DNA of 64,000 nucleotides, from the IMG/VR virus record IMGVR_UViG_3300029288_000006, positions 28,275 through 92,274 of that record; one strand, written 5' to 3'. Positions within the stretch are counted from its first letter, which is position 1. Each line of letters begins with the position of its first letter. Under the pieces are notes generated by a model, which was not told the origin of the DNA, made no database searches, and saw only the letters and a list, made by a program, of their open reading frames with translations. Source of the stretch: a virus (Duplodnaviria; Caudoviricetes). A program made the translations under genes and the position numbers. Below are positions 22,095-45,016 of this stretch, one piece after another.

Positions 22095-22399
22095 CTTCTC
22101 TTCCTATCTTATTATAATAAAAGCGCATTGCACAATCTGACACACCAACAGAAGTGCAGATACAACAGCGATAACGGTAACATTCTTGTCTAAATCCCTC
22201 ACGTATCCCAATATCTCCCGCAGTTGAAATTGTTCCTTTGAATCCACATCTGAGTCCTGTGTGATGGTCATTTTCATTCTCCTTTTGGTGAGCGCGGGCA
22301 GGCGGGCTAACATCTGATACAGACCCTTCGACAGACATCAGATGCCGGGCTCTATTCGGCTTTTGACCTACACCGCGCTCATTTCGTTCCGGGTTTCGT

Positions 22400-22673: not shown

Positions 22674-22747
22674 TGACTCCGGAGGGACTCGAACCATCAA
22701 TCACAGAATTGAAAGTCCCGTGGCTTAACCAATTCGCCTACGGAGTC
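22674..22747 (-). tRNA. tRNA-Glu(UUC)
   Basis: Acceptor GACTCCG/CGGAGTC, D arm GGC..TGG..GCC, anticodon loop CT-TTC-AA, T loop TTCGAGT; CCA not encoded. Confidence 0.88.
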
Positions 22748-24592: not shown

Positions 24593-24840
24593 CTTTCATT
24601 TTTAATTGGGAATTATTTATTGTTTTTTATTTCCATTTGGTTTTATTGGTTCTGCTTTATTTTCGCTTATAGGTTTAACCACACCACACACTGAACATCT
24701 GGCATGATTAGAATGTGACGCACTTCTCTTTATTTGATTAAAAACCCGCATCCCCTTACCGTAAAGTCTATCTTGGAATTCATGTTCGCAAGAGCATCGC
24801 ATAATCATAGAAAAATATCTCCTTTTATTCTGATTATAAA

Positions 24841-24900
24841 TGAGCATGGTCAGGATTCAAACCTGTTAGTATCTCCAATGGATACCTTCACTCCATGCTC
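24841..24900 (-). ncRNA. 60-nt three-armed tRNA-like RNA
   Basis: GAGCATGG/CCATGCTC+A acceptor-like stem, a single hairpin GGTATC-CATTGGA-GATACT, T-like arm CAGG-TTTGAAT-CCTG. Confidence 0.55.
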
Positions 24901-24917
24901 ACGATTATATATTAGAC

Positions 24918-25044
24918 AGGTACGGGTAGGATTTGATACCTACATGAAGAACTCGCTGGTGATTTACGCTATTAGTTATATTGACGAGTTTCGCGTCCCG
25001 TGGTTCTTCTACACCGTTGCGTCTGCCAATTTCGCCACCGTACC
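24918..25044 (-). ncRNA. 127-nt tRNA-Leu-like RNA with an enlarged, non-canonical central region
   Basis: GGTACGG/CCGTACC acceptor, Leu-type D arm TGGCGAAATTGGCAGACGC, T arm GTAGG-TATCAAAT-CCTAC; about 74 nt between D and T arms with no canonical anticodon arm. Confidence 0.65.
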
Positions 25045-25089
25045 TACCTAATATTATTTATTACTGGTTACAATTTTTACTAGGATACC

Positions 25090-25602
25090 TTATTCCAAAA
25101 CCTCAACGCTCTTGACCGAAACGCCGAGTTTGGAAATGAGTTTGGAAATCTGCAACTGGCACATACTACCAACGAAATCCGCAATCTCAGCATCCTTAAG
25201 CAGTTTGATGTGCTTACGCCGGAATGTGAGATTGCCGTCGGTAGCAAGATTACCGGAACCGCCGAAAAACGCGAAAGTATTATTCTCTGGATCAATACAT
25301 ACCAGCGGTGTATTGACTGGATATGCATGACGATCCATATGATCTTTTGCGGTCAGAACCGTACCCTTAACATATTTAAGGGTTGTGCTCCCATTCTCGA
25401 CCAGACCGGTGATCGTACCCTCTGCCGAACCTGTGACTAACTCGAATGCACGAGCCATGATTTCCGCATCATCCCCACTCATATCCCCCAATACACTTGC
25501 GATCTCGGCATTGCGTTTGTTGATTGCTTCACCCGGAAAATAATCTTTTCTCACCTGATTCGTGGCGGTGGTGAGGAACGCCTTCAGAGCTTCGTTTCCC
25601 AT
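25090..25602 (-). CDS. hypothetical protein (GC-richer codons)
   Basis: GGGAG RBS; 170 aa. Confidence 0.65.
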   Translation of the reverse strand: MGNEALKAFLTTATNQVRKDYFPGEAINKRNAEIASVLGDMSGDDAEIMARAFELVTGSAEGTITGLVENGSTTLKYVKGTVLTAKDHMDRHAYPVNTPLVCIDPENNTFAFFGGSGNLATDGNLTFRRKHIKLLKDAEIADFVGSMCQLQISKLISKLGVSVKSVEVLE

Positions 25603-41501: not shown

Positions 41502-41969
41502 TTGGAATTAAAATGGAGATACAATATGTCAAAGGATATAGTGGTGTACAGATACAAGAAAATGTTAGAATGTTTTGAAGATTTTTGGCGCTCATCATCT
41601 GGAGATTCGTTAGATAATAGTTACTGGACGTATATACATCGTGATAGAATTGAAAGAATTGACGGTAGTTTTAATAGTAATATAAGTAATAATATAAAAT
41701 TATGGATTGATGCACATACATTTAATTGTTGGGTGTGGGTTGATACAAATAAGTCACAGTTGAATATATGGTTAAACGATAAATGTACACGGGATGAAGC
41801 AATAAAAGAAATTAAACCAATACTTAGAAATTTATATGTACCTAGATTTAAGAACAAGAGTGAAAGTGAGGAAGAAAAAAAATCAATGTTGGACGAATTT
41901 TATAATAAACTAGCTTTAAAATACGCCACCTTATCAATCTTAGATTATCATAAACGGGGTGATATATGA
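41502..41969 (+). CDS. hypothetical protein
   Basis: ATGA-coupled to nrdJ; likely start is MSKDIV. Confidence 0.6.
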   Translation: MELKWRYNMSKDIVVYRYKKMLECFEDFWRSSSGDSLDNSYWTYIHRDRIERIDGSFNSNISNNIKLWIDAHTFNCWVWVDTNKSQLNIWLNDKCTRDEAIKEIKPILRNLYVPRFKNKSESEEEKKSMLDEFYNKLALKYATLSILDYHKRGDI

Positions 41970-44900
41970 ATTCCACAGAGATTATTGAAAAGGTTTCACA
42001 AGATTCAATTCCGTTTGTTACTCCCGATCTTTCCCCCAATGCTATCACAGTTCTAAATACTCGCTATCTAAAAAAAGATGAGAATGGTACTCCCACTGAA
42101 ACTCCCACTGATATGTTTAAGCGGGTAGCTAAGACAATAGCTGATGTGGAATGTACATGGGGAACTGATATAGCATCTATAGAGAAATTATATAGATTGT
42201 TTTATTCAATGATGGCTAATCTGGACTTCCTACCAAACTCACCCACGCTCATGAATGCGGGACGGGAGTTGGGAAATCTGTCTGCCTGCTTCGTCCTCCC
42301 GATCGAGGACTCGATGGATTCTATTTTTGAGACGTTAAAGCAAACCGCGTTAATCCATAAGAGCGGCGGCGGCACGGGTTTTTCTTTTTCTTCTCTTAGG
42401 TCGAGCGGCGATTGTGTTAAGAGTTCCCACGGCGTTGCCAGTGGACCAATTTCTTTTATGGAGATTTATGATAAAGCCACAGAGACAGTTAAGCAAGGCG
42501 GTACGAGACGTGGAGCCAACATGGGTATGTTGCGAGTTAATCATCCCGATGCGAGACAATTTATTACATGCAAAAAAGATACCACAAGATTAACAAACTT
42601 TAATATTTCTATAGCTCTTACTGATGAATTTATGAAAGCTGTAGAATCTAATTCTACATATAATCTTATTAATCCTCATGGCAATAAGATAGTTAAAGAA
42701 GAGAACGCACGTGAGATATTTGATTTGATAGTGAAGAATGCCCATGAGACGGGTGAACCCGGTATTATATTTATAGATGAAGTAAACAGAAAGAATCCAA
42801 TAATAGGTAGTGTAATTTCTTCCACTAATCCATGTTGGACTGGTGATACTAAAATATGGACTATAAATGGGAAAATTCCAATATCAGAACTAGTTGGAAA
42901 AGAAGTTAAAGTATTAACACAATTATATGATGGAACATTGACATTTAGAACTATGCATAATATTAGAAAAACAAATGAATCATCTAAAATATTACGTGTA
43001 ATATTAGATAATGGAACATCATTATATTGTACTCCTAATCATAAATTATATTTAAAAAATGGTATAAAAATTGAAGCACAAAATTTATTGCCGGGATATA
43101 GACTTTCGAGTGTATATAGGTATAAGGCCAATACTAAGGGTTATATAAAATTAGATAATGGATATGAGCAAGTTTTAGAACATTGGGTAGTTGGTGATGG
43201 TAAATATAATAGGAGACCAGATTATCCAAATGAACATTGCCATCATATTGATGGTAATAAAAAAAATAATGTACCAGAAAATTTGGAATACATTAATGGG
43301 ACAATTCATAATAGTGCTAGAATGATGGGGAAAAATAATCCCATGTTTGGAATTTGGGATGCAAGAAATCCATTCTTTAATATTCCAGTTAATGGTTCTA
43401 ATAATCCAAATTATCGTCATGATATTTCAACCGAAGAAATTATCTCGATGCGAAAATCTGGTAAAACAATAAAAAGTATTTGTGATATATTGGGATGTTG
43501 TAAATATACAGTCCAGAAAAGAATTAGAGAATATAAACAATCCATTTGTAATCATAAGGTAATTAAAATTGAATTATTAGAGGATATGTATCCCGTATAT
43601 AATGGGGAAGTTGATGAAACTCATAGTTATTTTGTGGTAACTGGTACTAATGGTGCTATATTATCTTCCAATTGTGGCGAACAACCTCTGTTACCCTACG
43701 AATCATGTTGTCTTGGTTCTATTAATTTGTCCAATATGGTAAAAAATTATAATATTAATTGGAAGAAGTTGAGTGATGCAATCCATCTCTCTACTAGATT
43801 TTTGGATAATGTAATAGAAGCAAACAGATTCCCACTATCAATTATAGAACAGGAAACAAAGAAGAATCGCAAGATTGGTCTTGGTGTTATGGGATTTGCT
43901 GATATGTTAATTAAACTCGGTATTCCCTACGATTCGGACAAGGCGTTGGGAATAGCCGATACAGTTATGGGTTATATACAGGTAGAATCTCATGATGAAT
44001 CTGTGCATCTAGCGCAACTCCGTGGTGAATTTCCAAATTATAGGGATAGTATTTATTCTCATGGCAATGTGATATGTGTCTATATGCGCAATGCTACTAC
44101 CACAACTATCGCGCCTACCGGAACCCTTAGTATTATAGCTTCATGTTCGAGTGGAATAGAACCATTGTTCGCACTTGAATATACAAAGAACGTTATGGAC
44201 GGTAAGAAATTAATAGAAGTACATCCTGAACTGAAAAGAAACTTGGATTTTTATAAAGTTAATAATTTCAATGAGTTACCAGATACGATTAAATCAGTTT
44301 TCAGGGTTGCTCATGATATACCAGTAGAATGGCATGTTAAGATGCAAGCTGCATTCCAGAGATATACAGACAATGCGGTGAGCAAAACTATTAATTTCCC
44401 GTCTACCGCGACAACTGAAGATGTTAAGAAAGCATATCTATTAGCTTATGAGTTAGGATGTAAGGGTGTAACTATTTATCGAGATGGTTCGCGTAGTAAT
44501 CAGGTTCTTACTACTAATAAAGATGAGAGTAAGACAGAAAATAAGGAAGAAGAGGTTGTTGTTTCTAAACCCCGTTCTCGTCCCACCAAAACTTCCGGTA
44601 CAACAGAGAAAATTAAGACTGGTTGTGGTAATTTATATGTAACAGTCAACAATGATTCTGATGGTTTATGCGAAGTATTCTGTACAATGGGTAGATCGGG
44701 AGGTTGCACATCGAGCCAATCGGAAGCGATTAGTCGCCTCATATCCCTAGCATTGCGTAGCAAAATAGATTTATCAGATATAGTCCATCAACTCAAGGGT
44801 ATACGTTGCCCATCTCCAATTTGGCAAAATGGTAAACTTATATTGTCTTGCGCTGATGCAATAGCTAACTCACTCAATAGTCATATCGAAAGTACTATCG

Positions 44901-45016
44901 AATCCACAACCCACGATGATAGAAATAGTTTTCTGTGTCCCGAATGTGGTGAAGAAGTAGAAGTTTCCGAGGGTTGTTTTATATGTAAGCATTGTGGATA
45001 TTCTAAATGTCAGTGA
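41966..45016 (+). CDS. nrdJ: adenosylcobalamin-dependent class II ribonucleotide reductase, intein-containing
   Basis: [36 protein letters not shown]|CGEQ split by an intein, TIAPTGT, C-terminal TSCPD-like domain and Zn ribbon. Confidence 0.95.
42833..43672 (+). mobile_element. intein (280 aa) with HNH endonuclease, inserted at the RNR catalytic NPC motif
   Basis: Starts CWTGDT, block [27 protein letters not shown], ends SSN before Cys+1. Confidence 0.92.

Follow-up and report, generated by a model that had tools for sequence, protein, structure and literature searches.

A tRNA-like element apparently lacking a D stem in an intergenic gap of two phages: a candidate transcript-processing signal

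The window analyzed here is a 64,000-nucleotide (nt) stretch of DNA from an uncultured phage, bases 28275-92274 of the 92,274-base-pair (bp) IMG/VR virus record IMGVR_UViG_3300029288_000006, which has direct terminal repeats. Within a long run of minus-strand genes it carries a 60-nt element, located in the 281-nt gap between the genes for a 170-amino-acid (aa) protein and a 63-aa Cys-rich protein. We consider it likely that this element is a selected tRNA-like fold without a D stem. As judged from sequence comparison, its conservation in one homolog is what makes the element real, beyond its shape. We read it as a tRNA-derived, tRNA-like module and not as a decoder. Tentatively, we propose that it acts as an RNA-processing or stabilising element in a polycistronic phage message, as a putative substrate of RNase P and of 3' trimming.

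Fold and conservation of the element

In the RNA numbering used below, position i corresponds to window coordinate 24901-i, with G1 at 24900; the parts of the element are given in Table 1. An earlier sequence-only reading had described this site as a minimal tRNA mimic with one arm missing. The minus-strand sequence, stems and loops that it gave were correct letter for letter at 24900..24841, as was the distance of 17 nt to a second aberrant tRNA-like element (127 nt, 25044..24918). With ViennaRNA, a three-way junction was both the minimum free energy (MFE) and the centroid structure (-21.8 kcal/mol). Shuffled sequences gave -12.7 +/- 2.9 kcal/mol (z = -3.16), and 2 of 200 of them folded equally well. 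The three-way junction persisted in a 301-nt folding context. The plus strand had a weaker fold (-18.3 kcal/mol) without the T-loop motif, and the one G.U pair in the stem of the 6-bp hairpin is possible on the minus strand only. Between this hairpin and the T-like arm lies a 2-nt variable region (AA). The T-like arm shows the T-loop signatures of textbook tRNA numbering: its innermost stem G-C pair matches G53-C61, and U1 and A5 of the loop match T54-A58. The acceptor and T stack comprises 8 + 4 = 12 layers, like the canonical 7 + 5. According to a covariance model (R1), the element is single-copy in the 92-kb genome.

Two relatives of the 170-aa protein at 71% identity were found among 5.8 billion proteins, and an exhaustive HMMER search added a few distant ones. 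The contigs recovered by such protein routes were L002, L003, L008, L009, L010 and L012 only. The sole homolog of the element in everything searched was detected in the ENA contig L002 (L002:1841-1900), which carries a neighbouring protein of 71% identity, at the same site and with the same two flanking genes. It is identical at 54 of 60 positions (90%), compared to 68-78% DNA identity in four flanking genes; the probability of at least 54 identical positions at the background identity is 0.003 to 0.013. Furthermore, the spacers on both sides of the conserved block are unalignable between the window phage and L002.

None of the six differences between the two copies breaks a pair (P = 0.03 for six random substitutions), and the probability of no broken pair together with at least one double-sided compensation is 0.007. 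At acceptor pair 4-56, the C-G of the window is replaced by U-A in L002, a compensated change. The sole change in the linker is A13 to G (AGUGAA in the window, AGUGGA in L002), and the sole change in the T loop is U42 to C (UUUGAAU in the window and the canonical UUCGAAU in L002). The remaining two differences are U23 and U24, the "anticodon" positions 34 and 35, which are A and A in L002 (UUG versus AAG). Both copies have A at position 33, the hairpin stem is fully invariant, and the trailer after the element differs (UUU in the window, UCC in L002). The sequence-only reading had taken the intact stems as an argument against simple decay, and the comparison bears this out, with one compensated pair, no broken one and 90% versus 68-78% identity. 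It had also named a lack of compensatory changes in homologs as grounds for giving up its proposal; L002 carries such changes.

Other searches yielded no further copy. In IMG/VR, exact or degenerate pattern scans revealed no homolog, and their one match (L004) was judged to be a chance fit to a generic T arm. No element homolog was retrieved by pattern scanning from JGI metagenomes or GTDB genomes either, nor by IMG/VR scans anchored on the 170-aa protein, the portal protein or P0012, the JGI homolog of a 253-aa neighbour, which was not traced to DNA. A homolog of the small Cys-rich protein occurs in a different phage context, where the element is missing. When model R1 was run with filters off on L003, L008, L009, L010 and L012, nothing credible was found, the best hit being a plain hairpin in L012. 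Against the L003 spacer, the element aligned locally no better than shuffled sequence. DNA contigs from two other samples ended short of the element and yielded no variants of it.

Anatomy and relation to tRNA

In canonical tRNA, the flat outer face of the elbow is formed by a base pair between C56 and the D-loop nucleotide G19, together with a contact of G18 to position 55. The T loop U40-U46 of the element corresponds to tRNA positions 54-60, with U42 as the C56 analog. Opposite U41-U42 the window has G12-A13, and opposite U41-C42 L002 has G12-G13. On this alignment, L002 appears as the textbook combination of GG with UUCGAAU, and the window as its iso-steric A-U version. We infer that the exchange of A13/U42 for G13/C42 represents the analog of the 19-56 elbow tertiary pair. 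Because the sole linker change matches the sole T-loop change, we favour a D-armless anatomy, in which the D stem would be lost, the linker would supply the two elbow purines and the hairpin would be the analog of the anticodon arm. The sequence-only reading had left open whether the hairpin was such an anticodon arm or a long D arm. Its structural claim of a tRNA-like RNA with one arm missing stands; the 13-42 coupling argues for the D-armless anatomy and against the long D arm. The Gln(UUG) identity that it had suggested did not hold, given A33 in both copies and the exchange of UUG for AAG at positions 34/35.

A tRNA-Glu(UUC) was the only tRNA called in the window by standard ARAGORN and by Rfam 15. 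At the gathering threshold and at E<=10 alike, Rfam gave no match to the element, RF00005 included. At E<=10, RF01684 (mascRNA-menRNA) had no match on the element and a weak one on the real tRNA-Glu only. Transfer-messenger RNA (tmRNA) models of ARAGORN and Rfam made no call; the stem has a G3-C pair, not G3.U70, and 60 nt are too short for a tag open reading frame. In its metazoan-mitochondrial mode (-mt), a setting of low specificity that makes 16 calls in 92 kb, ARAGORN classified the element as a D-armless mtRNA-Gln(UUG) and the L002 copy as mtRNA-Leu(AAG), in different registers. Of the features of a canonical tRNA, the element lacks a covariance-model score, the four-arm cloverleaf (it has no D stem), U33 and anticodon conservation. 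It shares the 12-pair acceptor/T stack, the T loop with its 54-58 and 53-61 features, and a covarying elbow contact that is presumably tertiary. Its layout of acceptor, short connector, anticodon arm and T arm is the D-armless one accepted by ARAGORN -mt.

We consider it scarcely credible that the element is a functional D-armless decoding tRNA (Gln-UUG here, Leu-AAG in L002) or an aminoacylated non-ribosomal carrier. Apart from the ARAGORN -mt call, A73 and G1-C72 would be compatible with several synthetases, and the 6-bp anticodon stem recalls the mitochondrial D-armless tRNA-Ser. However, A33 replaces the near-universal U33, and the anticodon identity switches between close relatives. The variable region has 2 nt, CCA is not encoded, the phage has no CCA enzyme, and no Rfam tRNA score was obtained at E<=10. 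Moreover, no use of D-armless tRNAs by bacterial EF-Tu and ribosomes is known. The amino-acid-carrier function, one of three suggested by the sequence-only reading, gained no support, with CCA not encoded and no known identity set.

Candidate function and competing explanations

In the proposed mechanism, the element would be transcribed from the minus strand within a polycistronic phage message. The parts kept for the host maturation machinery would be the acceptor stem on the T stem, the UUYGAAU T loop, and the linker purine pair docking on T-loop positions 55/56 to form the elbow. The remaining hairpin would replace the anticodon arm without decoding. RNase P would cut between the conserved U-1 and G+1, and 3' trimming enzymes would act downstream. 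As a result, the 170-aa message would be separated from the Cys-rich gene, a stable structured end would be left on one of them, or both. The analysis shows a single-copy, conserved fold on the minus strand with compensated changes; transcription, RNase P cleavage and the effects on mRNA fate are predictions.

An RNase P cut is proposed because the element offers an elbow and an acceptor/T stack, and the base at -1 is the preferred U. Both copies share U(-1) and G(+1), while the remaining leader differs. PMC4919913 describes RNase P as docking on the elbow and measuring the acceptor/T stack. According to the same paper, the D loop is dispensable and the T loop needed, and tRNA-shaped RNAs other than tRNAs are cleaved by RNase P. 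By this description and general knowledge, a substrate should present the T stem-loop and the acceptor stem as a unit, with U at -1, and the element does so.

The genomic context is in line with this proposal. In the same operon, tRNA-Glu and an element at 22286..22380 are also located 0-20 nt before a ribosome-binding site (RBS). In the distant relatives L008 and L012, the homolog of the 170-aa gene is followed by plain hairpins; the L003 gap contains a different, weakly structured 71-nt sequence. Because L008 and L012 have hairpins where two phages have the tRNA-like element, the gap after the 170-aa gene appears to be a site that usually holds an RNA end or stability structure, which is tRNA-like in these two phages. 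Of the three functions suggested by the sequence-only reading, an RNase P/RNase Z processing signal fits the context best.

Several points weigh against this proposal or limit the evidence for the fold. We used a descriptor in which a closing stem of 8 Watson-Crick pairs encloses an inner hairpin (at least 5 bp) and a 4-bp stem that carries a TTYRANN loop and lies 0-2 nt from the 3' strand. It matched this locus only in the 92-kb genome, but at least one match also occurred in 7% of dinucleotide-shuffled genomes (15% if the inner hairpin was not required). Because of these 7%, the shape by itself is weak evidence, suggestive and not decisive. With two sequences only, a column-shuffle control cannot reach significance, and 113 of 500 shuffles reached the observed score. 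The 13-42 coupling was noticed post hoc, with an estimated chance probability of 0.05-0.15. The element is absent from L003, L008 and L012 and is therefore dispensable or replaceable. With the conserved flanking nucleotides G(-2), U(-1) and U(+61), the closing helix can grow by the pairs G(-2).U and U(-1)-A to a length of 10 bp (12 bp in L002), which buries the "discriminator"; leader-trailer pairing is known to hinder RNase P. Neither an encoded CCA nor, in a search of the phage, a CCA-adding enzyme was found. Finally, the invariant 6-bp hairpin is not needed for recognition by RNase P and may be under other selection.

Since recognition by RNase P leaves the invariance of the hairpin unexplained, a trans-acting tRNA mimic is a further explanation, although we regard it as rather doubtful. 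The excised 60-nt RNA would serve as a decoy, sponge or inhibitor of a host factor that recognizes the shape of tRNA, for example a defence nuclease acting on the anticodon loop or the acceptor end, a modification enzyme, a T-box leader, or the ribosomal L1 stalk/E site. Such a role would account for the retention of the whole L-shape set, namely the acceptor/T stack, the T loop, the elbow pair and the 6-bp/7-nt "anticodon" arm including its stem. The conserved A33 in place of U33 would disable decoding yet leave a tRNA look-alike. PMC10264068 proposes that phage tRNAs counter tRNA-targeting defences via changes in the anticodon loop, and PMC12851939 describes immunity that cleaves the acceptor end. 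A decoy for an anticodon nuclease, however, should keep the target anticodon, and positions 34/35 differ between the copies. Furthermore, no tRNA-repair, nuclease-inhibitor or other informative gene was found among the ten neighbouring proteins. The decoy function suggested by the sequence-only reading is neither supported nor excluded by this evidence.

The patchy distribution (two of five syntenic relatives) and the occurrence of the bare shape in shuffled genomes would also be expected from a neutral remnant of a phage tRNA gene, which would have lost its D stem by internal deletion and would look intact only because of recent local divergence or exchange. In addition, the element adjoins another aberrant tRNA-like element, and phage tRNA clusters commonly contain pseudo-tRNAs. 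We nevertheless judge this explanation unlikely. It has to accommodate the contrast between 90% identity and the 68-78% of the flanking coding DNA, with unalignable spacers, and the finding that four of the six changes are pairwise compensated with no stem broken. Transfer of a lone 64-nt block with differing spacers on both sides would be an unusual mosaic unit.

We also considered a cis-acting translational or stability element of the Cys-rich gene, working by alternative pairing of hairpin and RBS or by protection of the 5' end of the message. The 3' strand of the hairpin, GGAGAUAC, copies the RBS region GGAGAUAU, and the 5' strand could pair with the RBS. Both phages have the element 17 nt before the RBS and GGAG in the loop/stem, with a perfect AAGGAG in L002. 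The partner on the RBS side is not kept in L002 (GGAGAUUA), and in L003 this gene is preceded by a different structure. Neither the T loop nor the 13-42 coupling would be accounted for, and we regard this explanation as very unlikely.

A DNA-level or chance feature, either a promoter of the downstream gene or the 8-bp inverted repeat of a small mobile cassette, is highly improbable. The sequence TTGAAT-16-TATAAT is the best sigma-70-like match in 5 kb (10/12), and a similar 8-bp inverted repeat bounds the variable interiors of the 22286..22380 element. L002, however, loses the promoter match and keeps the RNA fold; the compensated changes and the strand-specific G.U pair argue for RNA, and an integrase is absent.

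Other candidate roles of the site were rejected. It is probably not a sigma-70 promoter, since no -10-like hexamer is present at the equivalent place in L002. An intrinsic terminator was not reported by a terminator scan (trailer AUUUAUAA in the window, AUCCAUCU in L002). An integration site (attP) was rejected because a search of the phage genome revealed no integrase, and membership in a repeat family because the element is single-copy. Pairing of the hairpin loop with the T loop or with downstream sequence showed no consistent co-variation by eye. An N-terminal extension of the 63-aa protein is interrupted by three in-frame stops across the element in the window. The public gene call L002:1830-2162 extends the Cys-rich protein 34 codons upstream through the element; since the window has stops in that frame, this call is probably an annotation artefact.

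A processing or stabilising signal of this type would have parallels elsewhere. Plant-mitochondrial t-elements and mitochondrial tRNA punctuation are degenerate tRNA-like folds between coding regions that provide RNase P/RNase Z signals. Like the 60-nt element, they keep the acceptor/T part in a polycistronic setting without decoding. They are organellar and their processing is experimentally shown, whereas the phage element is known from sequence and apparently keeps the elbow pair. The mascRNA and MEN-beta RNAs are likewise approximately 60-nt, tRNA-like and non-translational, have a poor anticodon arm and are excised by RNase P and RNase Z. In contrast to the element, which has no D arm and no RF01684 match, mascRNA is eukaryotic and nuclear and keeps a D arm. 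PMC4919913 lists MALAT-1 and MEN-beta as RNase P substrates.

D-armless mitochondrial tRNAs (metazoan tRNA-Ser(AGY), nematode tRNAs) share with the element the acceptor, a 5-8-nt connector, an extended anticodon stem and the T arm. They decode, with U33, a conserved anticodon and adapted EF-Tu/ribosomes, whereas the phage element has A33 and a non-conserved anticodon. In a full-text literature search, no report of a D-armless tRNA from a phage came up, the matches being two reviews in which the terms occur apart from each other. Known RNase P substrates other than tRNAs include the tRNA-like domain of tmRNA, 4.5S RNA, the phage P1/P7 C4 RNA and the T4 stable RNAs C/D. In these, an acceptor/T-like minihelix serves as a handle for RNase P, as it would in the element. 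The tmRNA domain is also without a D stem and an anticodon arm; the element has no G3.U70, encoded CCA or mRNA-like domain. In our reading, the element would work like a handle of the t-element/mascRNA type for RNase P and RNase Z and look like a D-armless mitochondrial tRNA.

Apart from true tRNAs, tRNA-like structures are well documented in organelles, eukaryotic long noncoding RNAs and RNA viruses, and hardly described in DNA phages. Phage annotation pipelines skip such RNAs, and both standard ARAGORN and Rfam miss the 60-nt element. With its 60 nt, an elbow apparently preserved by co-variation despite the loss of the D stem, and a location at which a message would require an end, the element may represent a simple case of phage use of RNase P and tRNA maturation in transcript shaping or in making small stable RNAs.

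Other tRNA-like elements and genome context

Table 1. Features of the 60-nt element, its surroundings and related elements
Feature	Position	Strand	Remarks
60-nt tRNA-like element	24841..24900	-	sequence, MFE fold, covariance model R1, L002 homolog
Full conserved block: element with G(-2), U(-1), U(+61)	24840..24902	-	RNAalifold consensus, two-phage alignment
5' strand of 8-bp acceptor-like stem, GAGCAUGG	24893..24900	-	pairs with 24849..24842
6-nt linker AGUGAA replacing D arm	24887..24892	-	G12 (24889), A13 (24888): proposed G18/G19 analogs
6-bp hairpin, 7-nt loop CAUUGGA	24868..24886	-	loop 24880..24874; "anticodon" UUG 24878..24876; A at position 33
T-like arm, 4-bp stem CAGG/CCUG, loop UUUGAAU (24861..24855)	24851..24865	-	U42 (24859): C56 analog
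3' strand of acceptor-like stem, CCAUGCUC	24842..24849	-	then unpaired-or-paired A at 24841 (discriminator analog); CCA not encoded
Sigma-70-like TTGAAT-16-TATAAT, 10/12 match	24833..24860	-	overlaps T loop and trailer; absent from L002
RBS AAGGAG of 63-aa Cys-rich gene	24824..24819	-	~17 nt after 60-nt element
63-aa Cys-rich gene, downstream, start MIMRC...	24617..24808	-	start kept in L002 and L003
127-nt aberrant tRNA-like neighbour	24918..25044	-	Leu-type D arm, 8-nt T loop, irregular 75-nt centre
Three-frame stop run	25041-25092; L002:1806-1830; L003:1998-2025; L008:5496-5520	- (window)	
170-aa gene, upstream, synteny anchor	25090..25602	-	no family; homologs found
Third acceptor-stem-closed element, U followed by GAGCGCGG ... 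CCGCGCUC-ACCA	22286..22380	-	95 nt, z -3.8, directly before RBS
Sole canonical tRNA, Glu (UUC), no encoded CCA	22674..22747	-	19 nt before ATG of next gene
12 tandem units, 3.4 kb	L013:295-3813 = G001:C1:29494-33012	forward	record of L004, IMGVR_UViG_3300017917_004998

The acceptor helix of the neighbouring 127-nt element can be extended to 17 bp with its flanks (AUAUUAGGUAGGUACGG / CCGUACCUGUCUAAUAU). This element was called solely by ARAGORN at a noise-level setting, has no Rfam match, and is absent from L002 and L003. Directly downstream of the stop codon of the 170-aa gene, a run like TAGGTAGG...TAAGTAAGTAA is common to all relatives and provides stops in all three frames; part of this run in the window is the 5' strand of the helix of the 127-nt element.

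The 22286..22380 element has homologs at L002:3294-3415 and L003:3410-3603, with the closing stem (U followed by GAGCGCGG...CCGYGCUC), A(CCA), and a conserved RBS and start. Its interiors are unalignable across the three phages, with 91 nt in the window, 122 nt in L002 and 194 nt in L003; in the L003 copy, vestiges of a Leu-type D arm and of a T arm are still present. In common with the 60-nt element it has U(-1), G1-A2-G3-C4 ... G-C-U-C, and A73 after the stem. An approximately 1.3-kb block with the tRNA-Glu gene is apparently missing from L002 and L003, whose gene order is different at this place and in which ARAGORN detects no tRNA.

An array of similar units was reached via the chance T-arm match mentioned above, in an unrelated 123-kb phage fragment (L013). 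Its units have an identical acceptor stem (AGUCAGG/CCUGACU, followed by A) and an identical T arm; a common Leu-type D arm occurs in most of them. The unit centres are unrelated and 72-131 nt long; Rfam calls four units as over-long tRNAs and ARAGORN calls two. The array looks like a tRNA-scaffolded RNA array. These L004/L013 units and the 127-nt neighbour resemble the 60-nt element in retaining the acceptor stem and T arm, often along with a Leu-type D arm, around a centre of unrelated sequence. They keep the D arm and have centres of 72-131 nt, whereas in the 60-nt element the D stem is lost and a single hairpin remains. No sequence homology beyond the generic T arm was found between the element and either the L004/L013 units or the 127-nt neighbour.

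The 60-nt, 127-nt and 22286..22380 elements and the L013 array could represent one undescribed strategy, in which an acceptor/T "handle" is used as a scaffold and the centre is freely replaced; we regard this as speculative and rather unlikely. Host tRNA-maturation enzymes may then excise and stabilise the RNA, the cargo may be hairpins, antisense or protein-binding modules, and the 60-nt element may be the smallest member, with its single 6-bp hairpin as cargo. If this were true, many intergenic "pseudo-tRNAs" of phages would be functional noncoding RNA genes, the scaffold would be useful for RNA expression, and engineered tRNA-scaffold and tRNA-guide arrays would have a counterpart in nature.

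The phage genome has approximately 33% GC. Megablast and blastn of the region against INPHARED phages gave no DNA match, and the nearest cultured phages are distant, the portal protein being approximately 33% identical to portals of Rhizobium, Roseobacter and Pelagibacter phages. Pfam and PHROGs assigned a function or family to none of the ten neighbouring proteins. Elsewhere in the window, the large subunit of ribonucleotide reductase (1016 aa, 41966-45016, plus strand) matches HNH endonuclease families at residues ~380-620, and this middle part is probably an intein or an inserted homing endonuclease.

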